Source: Escherichia coli (GTDB lineage Bacteria; Pseudomonadota; Gammaproteobacteria; Enterobacterales; Enterobacteriaceae). From it: a DNA stretch of 64,000 nucleotides. Under the pieces are notes generated by a model. It was given only the letters and a program-made list of their open reading frames with translations, ran no database searches and was not told the DNA's origin. The DNA lies in the NCBI RefSeq assembly GCF_024502345.1, contig NZ_JALDNN010000001.1; one strand, given 5' to 3'. Below, one piece after another: positions 19,444 through 61,612 of this stretch (position 1 is its first letter; each line of letters starts with the position of its first letter). The position numbers were made by a program, and so were the translations under genes.

Positions 19444-21522
19444 TTAAATCAATGCCGATTTATCAATTCCCAGTCGCTTCATCCGTGACAGCAGGGTCGT
19501 GCGTTTCAGCCCCAGACGTTGCGCAGCGCCTTTAGGCCCGGCAACCACGCCGTTAGTTTCTTTCAGCACGCGAACAATCAACTGATATTCATCTTCGCCC
19601 TCCTGAGCGACAACCGTTGCGGCAGGCGGCGTTTCAGGCTCCGGTAAAGCAATATCTGGCAATGACAACTGCAGCACGTTGCCGCGTGTTAGCAATACCG
19701 CGCGCTCAATGACGTTTTCCAGTTCGCGTACGTTACCCGGCCACTCCATATTGCTCAAGGTGCGCAACGTCTCGGCAGGAATGCTGTCGATATTGCGCCC
19801 CAGACGACGGGCAATTTTGAAGGTAAAGGCTTTCGCCAGCAGCGGAATATCTTCCGGACGCTCGCGTAGTGGCGGAAGGTGAATCGGGAATACGTTCAGG
19901 CGGTAATAGAGATCGCTACGGAACTCACGGTCGGCGACCATTTTTTTCAGATCGCGGTTAGTCGCGGCAATTAAACGTACGTCCGTCTGAATGATTTTGT
20001 TGCTGCCGAGACGTTCAAACTCCTGTTCCTGCAATACACGCAGCAACTTCGGCTGTAACTCCAGTGGCATATCGCCCACTTCGTCGAGGAACAGGGAGCT
20101 TTTATCCGCCAGTTCAAAACGACCAATGCGCTGGGCGCTGGCACCGGTAAAAGCCCCACGCTCATGACCAAACAGATCGCTTTCCAGTAATCCGGCAGGC
20201 ATCGCCGCGCAGTTCATTTTGACCATGCGGCGATTATTACGCCCACTGAGATTATGGATCGCGCGGGCAATCAGCTCTTTACCCGTGCCAGTTTCACCGA
20301 GGATCAGCACGGTACTGTCACTTTGCGCCACCATTTCAACTTGTTTAAGCACGCTGTACATGGCTTCGCTGCGGCCAATAATCTCGCCAAATTCACTATC
20401 AACATTGTTGAGCTGCTCGGTCAGGGCGAGGTTTTCATCAACCAGCCGTTCTTTCAGACGATGGATTTCCTGATAGGCGAGGGCGTTATCGACAGCGATT
20501 GCCACACGTTCGGCAATCTGGCGCAGTAAATTCAGATTGGTAGTGGTAAACACTTTCTCTTCGCATTGCGCCAGTTTCAGCACGCCCAGCATGGTGTCGC
20601 CAGACATCAGCGGTAACAGGCACAAGGTTTGAATCTGGTTGCCCCAGGTGTCGAACAACATGCGTTCATAGGGGGCTAAATCGTCCCGCTCGTGGAGATT
20701 GATCAGCAGCATCTCTTTACTTTTGAACACGCGTTCGGTGAGGGTTCCGGCTTCATCGACTTCGCTCTGTTCGTGGGCGGGATGTTGTTTATCAAGATAG
20801 TGAGTGGAGTAGATGTTGAGTTTGTTTTTACGGTGGCTGCGTAAGACAATGCTGATATCGTCAATGTCGAAATAGTAATGGATTTCTTTGGCGACTTCGC
20901 TGACCAGTTCGTCCATATCCAGGCGGGAAAGCACCGCGTTGGTGATGGCGACCAGGATGCGGAAGTTATCGCGTTCCCGGCATAACAACTCATAGTCGAC
21001 ATTGTTAACGACGCGACTCTGGATTTGTTCGGTGATGACAGAAACGATCTGCGTAAATGTTTGCAGACGATTGAACTCTTTTTCGCTCCAGGGGCGATCG
21101 TCATAACGAATAAATTCACAGCCACCAAAAATATGCCCTTCCGCCGCCAGTGGCATCAGGCAATAGTGACCAAATTTTGGGTATAGCCCACCTGCGGCCA
21201 GCTGCGGCCAGGTTTCACAAAATTCTTCGTAACTGCAATGCAGCGTATCAGGGCGCGACAAAATGCTGCGTACCGGACCGTGTGCCAGAACAGTTTCGTC
21301 TTCATATTTAATGGGGGTGTCTTTTTCACGCGATGCGTAATAAGACGCACGTTGAGTCTGCGCTTGCCACAACACAATAGCCGCGTTGTCGGCGAGCGCA
21401 GAACGCTTTACCAGTTGCGAAAGAGCCTCACACAGCGAGGCCAGATCGGGCTGCTGCAATAGTGTCCGAGTGATGTCGAACAACCCTTGCTGTCCGAGAT
21501 CACTCATCGGTGTATATGACAT
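19444..21522 (-). CDS. fhlA: formate hydrogenlyase transcriptional activator FhlA (sigma54-dependent)
   Basis: Protein MSYTPMSDLGQQGLF... with AAA+ sigma54-interaction domain ([14 protein letters not shown]) and C-terminal HTH; start 12 codons inside the track ORF. Confidence 0.95.
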   Translation of the reverse strand: MSYTPMSDLGQQGLFDITRTLLQQPDLASLCEALSQLVKRSALADNAAIVLWQAQTQRASYYASREKDTPIKYEDETVLAHGPVRSILSRPDTLHCSYEEFCETWPQLAAGGLYPKFGHYCLMPLAAEGHIFGGCEFIRYDDRPWSEKEFNRLQTFTQIVSVITEQIQSRVVNNVDYELLCRERDNFRILVAITNAVLSRLDMDELVSEVAKEIHYYFDIDDISIVLRSHRKNKLNIYSTHYLDKQHPAHEQSEVDEAGTLTERVFKSKEMLLINLHERDDLAPYERMLFDTWGNQIQTLCLLPLMSGDTMLGVLKLAQCEEKVFTTTNLNLLRQIAERVAIAVDNALAYQEIHRLKERLVDENLALTEQLNNVDSEFGEIIGRSEAMYSVLKQVEMVAQSDSTVLILGETGTGKELIARAIHNLSGRNNRRMVKMNCAAMPAGLLESDLFGHERGAFTGASAQRIGRFELADKSSLFLDEVGDMPLELQPKLLRVLQEQEFERLGSNKIIQTDVRLIAATNRDLKKMVADREFRSDLYYRLNVFPIHLPPLRERPEDIPLLAKAFTFKIARRLGRNIDSIPAETLRTLSNMEWPGNVRELENVIERAVLLTRGNVLQLSLPDIALPEPETPPAATVVAQEGEDEYQLIVRVLKETNGVVAGPKGAAQRLGLKRTTLLSRMKRLGIDKSALI

Positions 21523-23996: not shown

Positions 23997-24859
23997 CGCT
24001 GTGTCTCCAGCCAGTTCAGCCACTGGTCCATCCCTTCACCGCTGGTGGCGGAAATAAGGATGATTTCAATTTCTGGATTGACTTCGCGGGCGCAGGCGAT
24101 GCACTTCTCAACGTCAAAGTTGAGATACGGCAACAGGTCAACTTTGTTGAGCAGCATCAGCGAGGCGGCGGCAAACATATGCGGATATTTCAGCGGTTTG
24201 TCTTCACCTTCGGTAACGGAAAGCACCGCCACTTTGTGTTTTTCACCGAGATCGAAGCTGGCCGGGCATACGAGGTTGCCAACGTTTTCGATAAACAGAA
24301 TACCGTTATCGTCCAGTGGCAGACGCGGTGCGGCGTCGGCAATCATCTGTGCGTCAAGATGGCAGCCTTTACCGGTGTTCACCTGAATCGCTGGTGTGCC
24401 GGTAGCGCGAATGCGTGCGGCATCGTTCACGGTTTGCTGATCGCCTTCAATAACCGCGCACGGAACGCTGTCTTTCAGGCGCATTAAGGTTTCCGTCAGC
24501 AGGGTGGTTTTACCGGAACCAGGGCTGGAAACCAGGTTGAGCACCAGTTGCTTGCGGGCAGCAAAGCGCGCGCGGTTGCGTTCAGCCAGACGGTTATTTT
24601 TGTCCAGCACGTCAATTTCGACTTCCAGCATCCGGCGCTGGCTCATGCCCGGCGCGTGAGTGCCCGCTTCGCCATGACCGTAATGCAGGTCGCCTTCTTC
24701 AGTCTGGCTGGGGGTAAATTCAGGCGTTTTAATGCCGGTGATTTTCATCTTCGGGCGTGCCGCCGGGGCAAATGGCGCGCTACGAAACGCGGAATGAGGG
24801 TTATGTTCATCACCCTCGATATACAGGTTGCCTTCACCGCAACCGCATGTTGTACACAT
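23987..24859 (-). CDS. hypB: hydrogenase nickel-incorporation GTPase HypB
   Basis: 290 aa with His-rich N-region and GSGKTT P-loop. Confidence 0.95.
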
Positions 24860-24862
24860 CGC

Positions 24863-25213
24863 TCACTCCTGGTCTATTTCTATCCGCCGAATCTGTAAAC
24901 CGTCGTCTGCCACAATCTGTAGCATGTCACCATGACACTGTGGACAGCGGCGGACTCGCTGGGTCAGTAGCGTCACATACTGTTGGCATGTTTCACACCA
25001 GCATTCGGCCTCTTGTTCTTCGAGGTGCAGTTTACAACCTTCCGCCACGCTGCCGCGGCAAACCAGATCAAAACAAAAGGCAAGAGAGCTGGTTTCGACA
25101 CAAGAAAATGCGCCAATTTTGAGCCAGACCCCAGTTACGCGTTTTGCGCCGTGTTTTGCGGCCTGCTGTTCGATCAATTCCAGTGCCCGTTGGCAGAGGG
25201 TTATTTCGTGCAT
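24863..25213 (-). CDS. hypA: hydrogenase nickel-insertion protein HypA
   Basis: MHEITLCQRALE... with two CxxC pairs; start 4 codons inside the track ORF. Confidence 0.93.
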   Translation of the reverse strand: MHEITLCQRALELIEQQAAKHGAKRVTGVWLKIGAFSCVETSSLAFCFDLVCRGSVAEGCKLHLEEQEAECWCETCQQYVTLLTQRVRRCPQCHGDMLQIVADDGLQIRRIEIDQE

Positions 25214-25242
25214 ATCGCCTCCCATTAACTATTGCCAGCTAC

Positions 25243-25259
25243 AAGCAATAATTGTGCCA
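25243..25259 (-). promoter_or_regulatory. sigma54 (-24/-12) promoter for the hyp operon
   Basis: Minus strand reads TGGCAC-aatta-TTGC (plus strand GCAAtaattGTGCCA) with correct GG-to-GC spacing. Confidence 0.75.
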
Positions 25260-25372
25260 GTGTTGATTATCCCTACAGTGAATAATGTCGATGATGTCGA
25301 AATGACACGTCGACACGGCGACGAAATTCACCAAAATCTTAAAAATCGCTTTAATAACAATAAATTAAAAGT

Positions 25373-25388
25373 TGGCACAAAAAATGCT
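25373..25388 (+). promoter_or_regulatory. sigma54 (-24/-12) promoter for the hyc operon
   Basis: TGGCACaaaaaaTGCT with correct GG-N10-GC spacing, ~40 bp upstream of hycA. Confidence 0.75.
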
Positions 25389-25424
25389 TAAAGCTGGCAT
25401 CTCTGTTAAACGGGTAACCTGACA

Positions 25425-25886
25425 ATGACTATTTGGGAAATAAGCGAGAAAGCCGATTACATCGCACAGCGGCATCGTCGCCTACAGGACCAGTGGCACA
25501 TCTACTGCAATTCGCTGGTTCAGGGGATCACGTTATCGAAAGCGCGCCTGCATCACGCCATGAGCTGCGCGCCGGACAAAGAACTCTGTTTCGTCCTTTT
25601 TGAACATTTTCGTATTTACGTCACCCTGGCGGATGGCTTTAACAGCCACACCATCGAGTATTACGTCGAAACAAAAGATGGCGAAGACAAACAGCGGATT
25701 GCGCAGGCGCAACTGAGCATTGACGGCATGATTGATGGCAAGGTCAACATCCGCGATCGCGAACAGGTTCTGGAACACTATCTCGAAAAAATCGCTGGCG
25801 TTTACGACAGCTTATACACCGCTATTGAAAACAATGTGCCGGTGAATTTAAGCCAACTGGTAAAGGGACAAAGCCCGGCAGCATGA
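25425..25886 (+). CDS. hycA: formate hydrogenlyase regulatory protein HycA
   Basis: 153-aa protein recognised as HycA. Confidence 0.95.
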   Translation: MTIWEISEKADYIAQRHRRLQDQWHIYCNSLVQGITLSKARLHHAMSCAPDKELCFVLFEHFRIYVTLADGFNSHTIEYYVETKDGEDKQRIAQAQLSIDGMIDGKVNIRDREQVLEHYLEKIAGVYDSLYTAIENNVPVNLSQLVKGQSPAA

Positions 25887-26010
25887 GCTGAGGCTTTGCC
25901 CGTTTTGCAGGCGTTACGCCTGTTTGGGGATGGGCGTGTCGATGAGTGTCGAAAATGACATTTCATCGGCATGTTTTCGTCAAAAATGACAATCACCTGA
26001 GGAATGCCTG

Positions 26011-26622: not shown

Positions 26623-28445
26623 GCGCAATTTCCCTGATCAATAGCGGCGTGGCGTGGTTTGTCGCCGCCGCTGTTCTGGCATTTCTCTTTTCTTTTCAAA
26701 AGGCGCTAAGCGGCTGGATAGCCGGAATTGGCGGCGCGGTTGGTAGTCTGTATACGGCAGCCGCGGGCTTCACTGTACTGACTGGCGCGGTTGGCGTGAG
26801 CGGTGCGCTGTCGCTGGTAAGCTACGATGTGCAAATCTCTCCGCTTAACGCGATTTGGCTGATTACGCTCGGTCTGTGCGGTCTGTTTGTCAGCCTCTAC
26901 AACATTGACTGGCATCGCCACGCGCAGGTGAAGTGCAACGGCTTGCAGATCAATATGTTGATGGCTGCCGCCGTCTGCGCCGTCATTGCCAGCAACCTCG
27001 GCATGTTCGTGGTAATGGCCGAAGTCATGGCCTTGTGTGCGGTGTTCCTCACCAGCAACAGCAAAGAGGGCAAACTGTGGTTTGCGCTGGGGCGTCTTGG
27101 CACTCTGCTGCTGGCGATTGCTTGCTGGCTGCTGTGGCAGCGTTACGGCACGCTGGATCTGCGCCTGCTGGATATGCGTATGCAACAGCTGCCGCTCGGT
27201 TCCGATATCTGGCTGCTCGGTGTGATTGGCTTTGGCCTGCTGGCCGGGATTATTCCGCTGCACGGCTGGGTGCCGCAGGCACATGCGAACGCCTCTGCGC
27301 CAGCTGCCGCGTTGTTTTCTACGGTAGTCATGAAAATTGGCCTGCTGGGCATTTTAACCCTGTCGCTGCTGGGCGGTAATGCACCGCTGTGGTGGGGGAT
27401 CGCGCTGCTGGTGCTCGGCATGATCACCGCGTTCGTCGGTGGTCTGTATGCGTTGATGGAACACAACATCCAGCGCCTGCTGGCTTACCACACCCTGGAA
27501 AATATCGGCATTATCCTGCTGGGGCTGGGCGCTGGCGTAACGGGTATCGCGCTCGAACAACCGGCGCTGATTGCCCTTGGTCTGGTCGGTGGTCTGTACC
27601 ATCTGCTTAACCATAGCCTGTTCAAAAGCGTACTGTTCCTCGGGGCGGGGAGCGTCTGGTTCCGTACCGGTCATCGCGATATCGAAAAACTCGGTGGTAT
27701 TGGCAAGAAAATGCCGGTTATCTCCATCGCCATGTTAGTCGGGCTGATGGCAATGGCTGCGCTGCCGCCACTGAACGGTTTTGCCGGGGAATGGGTTATC
27801 TATCAATCCTTTTTCAAACTGAGCAATAGTGGCGCGTTTGTTGCCCGTCTGCTGGGGCCGCTGCTCGCTGTGGGTCTGGCAATTACCGGTGCGCTGGCGG
27901 TGATGTGTATGGCGAAAGTCTATGGCGTCACGTTCCTCGGCGCGCCGCGTACCAAAGAAGCCGAAAACGCCTCCTGTGCACCGATCCTGATGAGCGTAAG
28001 CGTAGTGGCACTGGCGATTTGCTGCGTAATTGGCGGTGTTGCTGCGCCGTGGCTGCTGCCGATGCTCTCTGCTGCTGTACCTCTGCCTCTGGAGCCTGCT
28101 AACACCACCGTTTCTCAACCAATGATCACATTGCTGCTGATTGCCTGCCCGCTGCTGCCATTCATCATTATGGCGATTTGCAAAGGCGACCGCCTGCCGT
28201 CACGTTCCCGCGGTGCGGCCTGGGTGTGCGGCTACGACCATGAAAAATCAATGGTGATTACCGCTCACGGTTTTGCCATGCCGGTGAAACAGGCGTTTGC
28301 GCCAGTGCTGAAACTGCGCAAATGGCTGAATCCGGTGTCGCTGGTGCCGGGCTGGCAGTGCGAAGGTAGTGCGTTGCTGTTCCGCCGGATGGCGCTGGTT
28401 GAACTGGCGGTACTGGTGGTGATTATTGTTTCACGAGGAGCCTGA
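26619..28445 (+). CDS. hycC: formate hydrogenlyase membrane subunit HycC
   Basis: 608-aa polytopic membrane protein; start overlaps hycB stop. Confidence 0.95.
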   Translation: MSAISLINSGVAWFVAAAVLAFLFSFQKALSGWIAGIGGAVGSLYTAAAGFTVLTGAVGVSGALSLVSYDVQISPLNAIWLITLGLCGLFVSLYNIDWHRHAQVKCNGLQINMLMAAAVCAVIASNLGMFVVMAEVMALCAVFLTSNSKEGKLWFALGRLGTLLLAIACWLLWQRYGTLDLRLLDMRMQQLPLGSDIWLLGVIGFGLLAGIIPLHGWVPQAHANASAPAAALFSTVVMKIGLLGILTLSLLGGNAPLWWGIALLVLGMITAFVGGLYALMEHNIQRLLAYHTLENIGIILLGLGAGVTGIALEQPALIALGLVGGLYHLLNHSLFKSVLFLGAGSVWFRTGHRDIEKLGGIGKKMPVISIAMLVGLMAMAALPPLNGFAGEWVIYQSFFKLSNSGAFVARLLGPLLAVGLAITGALAVMCMAKVYGVTFLGAPRTKEAENASCAPILMSVSVVALAICCVIGGVAAPWLLPMLSAAVPLPLEPANTTVSQPMITLLLIACPLLPFIIMAICKGDRLPSRSRGAAWVCGYDHEKSMVITAHGFAMPVKQAFAPVLKLRKWLNPVSLVPGWQCEGSALLFRRMALVELAVLVVIIVSRGA

Positions 28446-28447
28446 GA

Positions 28448-29371
28448 ATGAGTGTTTTATATCCGTTAATTCAGGCGCTGGTGTTATTTGCCTTTGCGCC
28501 GCTGCTCTCCGGTATTACCCGCGTGGCGCGCGCCCGTCTGCATAACCGTCGTGGGCCGGGTGTGTTGCAGGAGTATCGTGACATTTTCAAACTGCTGGGC
28601 CGCCAGAGCGTTGGCCCGGATGCCTCCGGCTGGGTGTTCCGCCTGACGCCGTATGTGATGGTGGGCGTCATGCTGACTATCGCTACTGCGCTGCCGGTGG
28701 TGACCGTCGGTTCTCCGCTGCCGCAACTGGGTGATTTAATCACCTTACTGTATCTCTTTGCCATCGCGCGTTTCTTCTTTGCCATTTCTGGTCTGGATAC
28801 CGGTAGCCCGTTTACCGCTATCGGCGCGAGCCGTGAAGCGATGCTTGGCGTGCTGGTCGAACCGATGCTTCTGCTTGGTCTGTGGGTTGCCGCACAGGTT
28901 GCCGGTTCCACCAACATCAGCAACATCACCGACACCGTTTATCACTGGCCGCTGAGCCAGAGCATCCCGCTGGTACTGGCGCATTGTGCCTGTGCGTTCG
29001 CCACCTTTATCGAAATGGGCAAACTGCCGTTCGACCTGGCGGAAGCCGAGCAGGAGCTGCAGGAAGGCCCGCTCTCTGAATACAGCGGCAGCGGCTTTGG
29101 CGTCATGAAATGGGGTATCAGCCTGAAACAGCTGGTGGTGCTGCAGATGTTCGTCGGCGTATTTATCCCGTGGGGACAGATGGAAACCTTCACCGCCGGT
29201 GGGCTGCTGCTGGCGCTGGTGATTGCCATCGTCAAACTGGTCGTCGGCGTCCTGGTTATCGCGCTGTTCGAAAACAGCATGGCCCGTCTGCGTCTTGATA
29301 TTACTCCGCGCATTACCTGGGCTGGGTTTGGCTTTGCATTTTTAGCGTTCGTCTCCTTGCTGGCGGCGTGA
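28448..29371 (+). CDS. hycD: formate hydrogenlyase membrane subunit HycD
   Basis: 307-aa membrane protein. Confidence 0.95.
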   Translation: MSVLYPLIQALVLFAFAPLLSGITRVARARLHNRRGPGVLQEYRDIFKLLGRQSVGPDASGWVFRLTPYVMVGVMLTIATALPVVTVGSPLPQLGDLITLLYLFAIARFFFAISGLDTGSPFTAIGASREAMLGVLVEPMLLLGLWVAAQVAGSTNISNITDTVYHWPLSQSIPLVLAHCACAFATFIEMGKLPFDLAEAEQELQEGPLSEYSGSGFGVMKWGISLKQLVVLQMFVGVFIPWGQMETFTAGGLLLALVIAIVKLVVGVLVIALFENSMARLRLDITPRITWAGFGFAFLAFVSLLAA

Positions 29372-37717: not shown

Positions 37718-37865
37718 ACATTGTCATCACATGTCATCGTCACTAGTGTCGATGACATCTTTTTTCCTGCATTACAGAAATTAATTTCCTTAAATAACAG
37801 CAAATTAAAAACTGGCATGATTTGTGAATGTATCGGCGCATTAACTGTCATTGCTGGAGAATTTG

Positions 37866-43741: not shown

Positions 43742-43758
43742 TTGCAGATTACGTGCCA
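43742..43758 (-). promoter_or_regulatory. sigma54 promoter of norVW
   Basis: Minus strand reads TGGCAC-gtaat-cTGCA with correct -24/-12 spacing. Confidence 0.75.
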
Positions 43759-43813
43759 GTTTTTTATCTGATTGTTTTTACTCTATAAATAAAATTATGC
43801 TCATTAATGAGTA

Positions 43814-57699: not shown

Positions 57700-57792
57700 G
57701 GTGAGGTGGCCGAGAGGCTGAAGGCGCTCCCCTGCTAAGGGAGTATGCGGTCAAAAGCTGCATCCGGGGTTCGAATCCCCGCCTCACCGCCA
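57700..57792 (+). tRNA. serV: tRNA-Ser (anticodon GCU)
   Basis: GGTGAGGTGGCCGAGAGG...CTGCTAA...GGTTCGAATCC...CACCGCCA; long variable arm. Confidence 0.95.
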
Positions 57793-57795
57793 TTT

Positions 57796-57872
57796 GCATC
57801 CGTAGCTCAGCTGGATAGAGTACTCGGCTACGAACCGAGCGGTCGGAGGTTCGAATCCTCCCGGATGCACCA
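57796..57872 (+). tRNA. tRNA-Arg (anticodon ACG), copy 1
   Basis: GCATCCGTAGCTCAGCTGGATAGAGTACTCGGCTACGAACCGAGCGGTCGGAGGTTCGAATCCTCCCGGATGCACCA. Confidence 0.95.
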
Positions 57873-58007
57873 TATTCTCCGTAACCTTCAGCGATGAAGG
57901 TATGGAAGAGGTGGCGGTACTAACCGCAGGCACCAGGGAGAATAACGTTGCTTTAGCAACGGCCCGAAGGGCGAGCCGCAAGGCGAGTAATCCTCCCGGA
58001 TGCACCA
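57873..58007 (+). repeat. ~135-bp spacer repeat unit ending in a duplicated tRNA-Arg 3' fragment (unit 1)
   Basis: Ends ...AATCCTCCCGGATGCACCA, identical to the T-arm/acceptor 3' end of tRNA-Arg. Confidence 0.8.
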
Positions 58008-58071
58008 TCTCTTACTTGATACGGCTTTAGTAGCGGTATCAAAAAATCTGCAGTAAAGTAAGTTTCCCGAT

Positions 58072-58148
58072 GCATCCGTAGCTCAGCTGGATAGAGTACT
58101 CGGCTACGAACCGAGCGGTCGGAGGTTCGAATCCTCCCGGATGCACCA
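58072..58148 (+). tRNA. tRNA-Arg (ACG), copy 2
   Basis: Identical 77-nt sequence. Confidence 0.95.
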
Positions 58149-58210
58149 TCTCTTACTTGATATGGCTTTAGTAGCGGTATCAATATCAGCAGTAAAATAA
58201 ATTTCCCGAT

Positions 58211-58287
58211 GCATCCGTAGCTCAGCTGGATAGAGTACTCGGCTACGAACCGAGCGGTCGGAGGTTCGAATCCTCCCGGATGCACCA
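58211..58287 (+). tRNA. tRNA-Arg (ACG), copy 3
   Basis: Identical 77-nt sequence. Confidence 0.95.
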
Positions 58288-58422
58288 TATTCTCCGAAAT
58301 CTTCAGCAATGAAGATATCGAAGAGGTAGCGGAATTAACCGCAGGCACCAGGGAGGATAACGTTGCGCCAGCAACGGCCCGAAGGGCGAGCCGCAAGGCG
58401 AGTAATCCTCCCGGATGCACCA
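58288..58422 (+). repeat. spacer repeat unit with tRNA-Arg 3' fragment (unit 2)
   Basis: Near-identical to unit 1. Confidence 0.8.
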
Positions 58423-58485
58423 TCTCTTACTTGATATGGCTTTAGTAGCGATATCAATATCAGCAGTAAAATAAATTTTCCCGAT

Positions 58486-58562
58486 GCATCCGTAGCTCAG
58501 CTGGATAGAGTACTCGGCTACGAACCGAGCGGTCGGAGGTTCGAATCCTCCCGGATGCACCA
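58486..58562 (+). tRNA. tRNA-Arg (ACG), copy 4
   Basis: Identical 77-nt sequence. Confidence 0.95.
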
Positions 58563-61470: not shown

Positions 61471-61543
61471 GAAAAAGGCCACTCGTGAGTGGCCAAAATT
61501 TCATCTCTGAATTCAGGGATGATGATAACAAATGCGCGTCTTT
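61471..61543 (-). ncRNA. micA: small RNA MicA (SraD)
   Basis: Minus strand reads GAAAGACGCGCATTTGTTATCATCATCCCTGAATTCAGAGATGAAATTTTGGCCACTCACGAGTGGCCTTTTT. Confidence 0.9.
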
Positions 61544-61612
61544 CATATACTCAGACTCGCCTGGGAAGAAAGAGTTCAGAAAATTTTTAAAAAAATTACC
61601 GGAGGTGGCTAA

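Follow-up and report, generated by a model that had tools for sequence, protein, structure and literature searches.

The divergent sigma-54 promoters of the hyc operon and the hyp operon in Escherichia coli and the control region that surrounds them

The spacer between hypA and hycA of Escherichia coli almost certainly carries two divergent sigma-54 (RpoN) promoters of the formate regulon, P-hyp at 25260..25244 on the minus strand and P-hyc at 25372–25388 on the plus strand. The hyc genes form the hydrogenase-3 operon and the hyp genes the hydrogenase-maturation operon of E. coli, both controlled by formate and FhlA; their promoters are textbook cases of how formate, FhlA and sigma-54 control fermentative hydrogen production. 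The divergent promoters have been known since 1990 and have been re-confirmed genome-wide, and the finding is correct and ordinary. The present analysis covers the motifs, their rank in the window (the whole stretch of DNA that was analysed, 64,000 nucleotides), their conservation, the accompanying enhancer motifs and the intactness of fhlA, hycA and hypA.

The hyp-hyc Locus

The window is from E. coli and the region under study is the hypA-hycA spacer at the hyp–hyc junction; a 1.1-kb query (24800–25900) was matched in 5,425 of 5,426 complete E. coli genomes at an identity of at least 95%, with hypB, hypA and hycA annotated. The genes of the window follow the order mutS, ygbA, fhlA, hypEDCBA, hycA–I, ascBFG and hydN. 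The spacer measures 211 bp (25214–25424) from the hypA ATG at 25213 on the minus strand to the hycA ATG at 25425 on the plus strand; the preliminary description had given a hycA-hypA intergenic region of 200 bp, and the genome matches and annotation agree with its identification of the locus. The first gene of the hyp operon, hypA (24863..25213, minus strand), is identified by its open reading frame and annotation and by the Pfam family HypA (E = 7.6e-31); hycA (25425..25886, plus strand), the first gene of the hyc operon, encodes an antagonist of FhlA and is identified in the same manner, with a match to Pfam HycA_repressor (E = 1.3e-90). The cognate enhancer-binding activator is encoded by fhlA, which lies downstream of hypE (19444..21522, minus strand) as an uninterrupted open reading frame of 692 aa containing GAF, Sigma54_activat, AAA lid and HTH_8 domains; FhlA, HycA and HypA are all intact as encoded in the window.

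The K-12 locus (Lutz et al. 1990; OS27/OS28 of Bonocora et al. 2015) is none other than this one in a different E. coli strain, with identical -24/-12 17-mers, flanking genes, orientation and ATG distances; the predicted +1 stands 26 nt before the hycA ATG and 20 nt before the hypA ATG in both. Between the window and K-12 the spacer shows 8 substitutions in 211 bp (25275, 25277, 25331, 25333-25335, 25337 and 25348), all of which fall outside the promoter elements and the core of UAS1, the putative enhancer cluster between the promoters. Five of the substitutions are clustered at 25331-25337, between UAS1 and an IHF-like site, where conservation of the spacer across genera is also lowest. A further strain, NZ_CP065615.1 (FDAARGOS_943), shows no difference from the window within the 1.1-kb query region. 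In its annotation fhlA is a pseudogene with a frameshift and hycC is truncated, whereas in the window both genes are intact, at 692 aa for fhlA and 608 aa for hycC; the alignment is interrupted at the junction of hycC and hycD, and 28400-28473 of the window (74 bp) is left unaligned. A strain such as NZ_CP065615.1 would have both promoters without the activator.

The -24/-12 Elements and Predicted Transcription Starts

The promoter of hypABCDE(-fhlA), CTGGCACAATTATTGCT, faces hypA, with the -24 GG at 25258-25257 and the -12 GC at 25246-25245; it reads 5'-CTGGCAC-AATTA-TTGCT-3' and has 0 mismatches to the consensus TGGCAC-N5-TTGCW. The promoter of hycABCDEFGHI, TTGGCACAAAAAATGCT, faces hycA, with the -24 GG at 25374-25375 and the -12 GC at 25386-25387; it reads 5'-TTGGCAC-AAAAA-ATGCT-3', 1 mismatch from the same consensus. 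In both elements the GG and GC doublets are exactly one helical turn apart, as expected of sigma-54 -24/-12 promoters. Back-to-back elements, one on each strand, had been proposed in the preliminary description, and both are present where it placed them; its interval of 25243–25388 runs from the -12 element of one promoter to that of the other and is correct to the base.

Transcription starts were predicted by the rule of the sigma-54 ChIP-seq paper, which sets the +1 at motif centre +19. By this rule we infer a hyc +1 at ~25399 on the plus strand, 26 nt before the hycA ATG and equivalent to 2,850,461 of NC_000913.3, and a hyp +1 at ~25233 on the minus strand, 20 nt before the hypA ATG and equivalent to 2,850,627. 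Among the starts listed in the Cappable-seq supplement none is near the predicted hyc or hyp +1, a comparison that is uninformative. The Cappable-seq cultures were reportedly aerobic, and hyc and hyp would be silent there.

Both predicted starts coincide with the last A of the same octamer, AGCTGGCA, found at 25392-25399 (plus strand) and 25240-25233 (minus strand); this sharing is specific to E. coli, as the stretch varies in other genera, and is probably a coincidence. The 5' leader of hycA, TCTCTGTTAAACGGGTAACCTGA (25400-25422), is conserved across genera to a degree that is unusually high for a 26-nt untranslated region; this may reflect translational control or downstream promoter contacts.

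Motif Strength Against Chance

Taken over the whole window, the bare consensus shows no enrichment: TGGCAC-N5-TTGCW with up to 1 mismatch is matched 4 times, against 3.63 expected; significance comes from score, placement and conservation. A position-specific scoring matrix (PSSM) was built from 38 sigma-54 ChIP-seq sites, with the hyc, hyp, hydN and norV sites withheld, and applied to 127,968 positions of the window; the hyp site ranks 1 (21.0 bits) and the hyc site ranks 3 (17.0 bits). When the spacer was shuffled 20,000 times, a plus-strand score equal to or above that of hyc arose at a frequency of 0.00025, and a minus-strand score equal to or above that of hyp arose 0 times. With a published RpoN matrix based on 186 promoters, hyp ranks 1 and hyc ranks 4 in the window. 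Rank 2 of the 38-site matrix is CTGGCACGTAATCTGCA at 43743–43759 on the minus strand, one base off the K-12 norV site OS25; from the K-12 gene order we take this motif to be the norV promoter.

Sigma-70-like promoters in the region are at chance level, with 2 weak matches (9/12) against 1.3 expected in shuffles, and a competing sigma-70 -35/-10 promoter is not needed to explain expression. An Rfam scan of the hypA-hycA spacer returned no RNA family. Elsewhere in the window the same database places five tRNA genes clustered at 57700-58559 (plus strand), of which four score identically, together with the MicA sRNA at 61473-61544 (minus strand); the tRNA cluster and MicA are ordinary E. coli features, unrelated to the hyc and hyp promoters.

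Published Binding and Expression Evidence

Sigma-54 occupancy, rpoN dependence and FhlA/formate dependence of these promoters are drawn from the literature. In the K-12 sigma-54 ChIP-seq study of Bonocora et al. (2015) the identical 17-mers are OS27 (hycA, FAT 91) and OS28 (hypA, FAT 201, PSSM 14.09); OS28 has the top FAT and the top PSSM score among the intergenic sites of Table 1, both sites bear the flag 'C' for a promoter experimentally confirmed in EcoCyc, and activation of hypA by FhlA/formate is stated in the same paper. By gSELEX the RpoN holoenzyme alone selects the spacer in vitro, and it is classed by the authors of that work as divergent hycA<>hypA. In Salmonella Typhimurium LT2 sigma-54 was seen by ChIP-chip to bind at both of the orthologous sites, and rpoN-dependent induction is 26-fold for the hyc operon and 5.6-fold for the hyp operon (Samuels et al. 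2013); as cited by Samuels et al. 2013, the promoters are attributed to Lutz et al. 1990 (Mol Microbiol 4:13).

Published work reports formate- and FhlA-dependent transcription of hypA, hyc and fdhF, and FhlA is described as binding formate with its N-terminal domain. The general sigma-54 mechanism as described involves a bEBP at a UAS, looping and IHF; IHF itself figures among the recorded activators of the hyc and hyp genes. The preliminary description had viewed the hyc and hyp promoters as divergent and FhlA-dependent, a reading supported by the K-12 ChIP-seq and EcoCyc records, gSELEX, the rpoN dependence in Salmonella, the intact FhlA and the FhlA-type enhancer motifs.

Conservation Across Enterobacteriaceae

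Conservation was followed in a scan of one genome per species, which covered 80 HycA-encoding loci from Escherichia to Kosakonia. All 80 species retain the divergent hypA/hycA pair, its two genes separated by 188–223 bp, and both motifs are present in every one of them with invariant GG and GC doublets at the same spacing; the lowest PSSM score of the hyp motif over these species is 16.7. The distance from predicted +1 to ATG is 24–27 nt for hycA and 18–24 nt for hypA (32 in one case). The N5 bases inside both motifs drift freely among the 80 species, and fixed GG/GC doublets around a drifting N5 are what selection acting on the promoter elements themselves leaves behind.

Phylogenetic footprinting of the spacer revealed three further conserved blocks, namely the hypA Shine–Dalgarno sequence, UAS1 and the IHF-like site; conservation of the first of these is no more than expected for a ribosome-binding site. 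The promoter motifs are separated, centre to centre, by 128-130 bp in 57 species, 116-117 in 19, 106 in 3 and 126 in 1. UAS1 lies 50–52 or 60–63 bp from the centre of the hyp motif and 54, 65–69 or 76–77 bp from that of the hyc motif; these shifts in ~10-12 bp steps on both sides suggest helical phasing, with few independent indel events underlying them.

FhlA-type Enhancers and an IHF-like Site

UAS1, ATGTCGATGATGTCGAAATGACACGTCGACA (25285..25315), is a putative FhlA-type enhancer cluster of TGWCR/YGWCA repeats between the promoters, and is the most conserved block of the spacer among 81 sequences. Relative to the predicted starts it is positioned at ~-84 to -114 for hyc and at ~-52 to -82 for hyp. 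When the density of TGWCR/YGWCA pentamers is followed over the 64 kb, the upstream region of hydN (37721–37760) comes first and UAS1 second; the region upstream of K-12 fdhF is alike.

UAS2, GTGTCGATGAGTGTCGAAAATGACA and TTTTCGTCAAAAATGACA (25937..25991), is a putative second FhlA-type enhancer in the hycA-hycB spacer and is probably the known hycA-hycB FhlA site; measured from the predicted starts, it lies downstream of the hyc +1 by ~550-590 bp and upstream of the hyp +1 by ~720-750 bp. It is nearly invariant in the 81 sequences while the length of the hycA-hycB spacer varies from 67 to 146 bp. UAS2 is a near-duplicate of UAS1, the enhancer between the promoters.

A published 14-mer matrix for FhlA rests on 13 characterised sites with the consensus TGWC-RAWRAT-GWCA. 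Over the whole window its best match is 25947–25960, in UAS2, and its second is 25286–25299, in UAS1; 25978-25991 also scores. The 13 sites probably include the present ones, so these matches are partly circular. Enhancer sites of the TGWC-RAWRAT-GWCA type, probably themselves part of the matrix, are found within looping distance of the promoters. The idealised FhlA 16-mer CATTTCGTACGAAATG, in the form in which it is quoted elsewhere from Leonhartsberger 2000, has no match at up to 5 mismatches in the hypA-hycA spacer; only CGAAAT half-sites are found there, at 25298 and 25322. The 16-mer is an idealised consensus, and the missing match does not exclude membership of the FhlA regulon.

The IHF-like site, TAACAATAAATTA (25355..25367, plus strand), matches WATCAANNNNTTR at 12 of 13 positions, a weak and A/T-rich motif; it is preceded by an A/T-rich tract, abuts the hyc -24 element and sits between UAS1 and P-hyc, the place that an IHF site would take at an IHF-assisted sigma-54 promoter. 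The consensus of other genera at this site is AATCAATnAnTTA, and in 56 of 81 sequences a degenerate IHF pattern recurs at 25-26 bp upstream of the centre of the hyc motif. A half-site resembling that of ModE, ATCGCTTTAAT at ~25345, was considered and dropped, since K-12 differs at 25348 (G to T) and there is no conservation of the block.

How the two enhancers are shared out between the promoters is a matter of inference, and the arrangement preferred here, with modest confidence, is one of dedicated enhancers, in which UAS1 would activate P-hyc from ~-100 with the help of an IHF bend, and UAS2 would activate P-hyp from ~-720 to -750, across hycA and P-hyc. Two separate and strongly conserved FhlA-type clusters argue for this arrangement, and the succession of UAS1, IHF-like site and P-hyc is the textbook sigma-54 geometry. 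It also agrees with the primary literature: FhlA footprinting reportedly assigns hyc to UAS1 and hyp to the hycA–hycB site, the latter in the work of Schlensog in 1994 and Leonhartsberger in 2000. Against it, no sequence feature assigns either enhancer to a promoter, and the quantised 10-12 bp spacing holds for UAS1 and P-hyp as well.

A shared enhancer is less likely: UAS1 would activate both P-hyc and P-hyp, and UAS2 would be auxiliary, for instance by increasing the concentration of FhlA locally or by forming a loop with UAS1. UAS1 is conserved and lies between both promoters, and its distance to each steps by ~10-12 bp, as if the helical face mattered for both; however, the ~52-82 bp between UAS1 and the hyp +1 leave little length for looping unless the DNA is bent, the IHF-like site is on the hyc side, and UAS2 is conserved at least as well as UAS1 with a higher score. 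The footprinting reports mentioned above, which are said to give the hycA-hycB site to hyp, likewise speak against sharing.

A Sigma-54-like Motif Inside hycA

A strong sigma-54-like motif, GTGGCACATCTACTGCA, is located inside hycA at 25493–25509 on the plus strand, where it scores 16.1 bits and ranks 4 with the 38-site PSSM and 3 with the published RpoN matrix. It is very unlikely that this motif is a third sigma-54 promoter, that is, a real holoenzyme site fed by UAS2 and producing hycB-I transcripts that bypass hycA, the gene of the repressor and anti-activator. Beyond its rank of 3-4 in the window, the motif is in sense orientation ~490 bp upstream of hycB, and intragenic sigma-54 sites are reported to be enriched at such distances from the next gene; yet the tables and supplements of the K-12 study contain no ChIP-seq peak for it, though they separate the peaks of hyc and hyp, which are ~130 bp apart. 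The motif is moreover spelled by the invariant residues W24, Y27 and C28, and the only free base of the GC doublet, the third position of Cys28, reads C in 62 of 81 sequences and T in the other 19, identical to the unrelated Cys48; as the TGC/TGT ratio is the same at both residues, there is no constraint beyond coding. An adaptive role of the motif was rejected, its free positions following ordinary codon usage. If true, a third site within hycA would uncouple structural-gene expression from negative feedback.

It is extremely improbable that other promoters transcribe hyc and hyp: the chance-level count of the consensus at up to 1 mismatch, the emphasis of Bonocora et al. that many sigma-54 binding sites may not be promoters, and an FNR-dependent route to hyp expression described in the literature speak in its favour, but it is opposed by the top-ranked scores with shuffle frequencies of at most 0.00025, by the correct orientation of the motifs and their distance from both start codons, which hold in 80 of 80 species despite drift of the spacer bases, by the record of both promoters as experimentally confirmed, by rpoN-dependent induction of both Salmonella operons and by the chance level of sigma-70-like matches.

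Proposed Mechanism and Related Systems

For the two divergent sigma-54 promoters the proposed mechanism is as follows. RNA polymerase-sigma-54 on each -24/-12 element would form a closed complex, unable to open alone; FhlA, the product of the gene at the end of the hyp cluster, would bind the enhancers of the TGWC-N6-GWCA type, UAS1 between the promoters and UAS2 between hycA and hycB. With formate on the N-terminal domain, the AAA+ ATPase of FhlA would remodel the closed complexes through DNA looping, which an IHF-induced bend beside P-hyc may aid. Transcription is predicted to start ~12 nt downstream of the -12 C, at ~25399 for hyc and ~25233 for hyp. HycA, the first product of hyc, would then exert negative feedback on FhlA, and the position of fhlA downstream of hyp would allow positive feedback.

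The hycA/hypA region of Salmonella Typhimurium LT2 is an orthologous divergent pair in which both promoters are sigma-54-bound and both operons are rpoN-dependent (Samuels et al. 2013); it differs in the spacer and flanking bases, TGGCATGGAAAATGCT and TGGCATAAATATTGCT. The FhlA-dependent promoters of fdhF and hydN-hypF likewise combine a -24/-12 element with an upstream cluster of TGWCR/YGWCA repeats; unlike hyc and hyp, they are single, unidirectional and without a back-to-back partner, and the hydN promoter has a weaker -12 element (GTGAA). The apparent hydN-hypF sigma-54 promoter of the window, CTGGCATGATTTGTGAA (~37813-37829, plus strand), is identical to the K-12 site OS26; a dense cluster of TGTCA/TGACA enhancer repeats (37721-37760) is found ~60-110 bp upstream of it. 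The zraP-zraS region of E. coli also features two opposite-strand sigma-54 sites in one short spacer, ~160 bp apart and both bound in vivo (OS38, OS39); it differs from hyc/hyp in its activator, the two-component response regulator ZraR, in its signal and in its enhancer sequence.

The analysis also yields an 80-species comparative map of the control region, which comprises the two promoters, two putative FhlA enhancers and an IHF-like site; this map could guide the engineering of formate-responsive expression or of hydrogen production.
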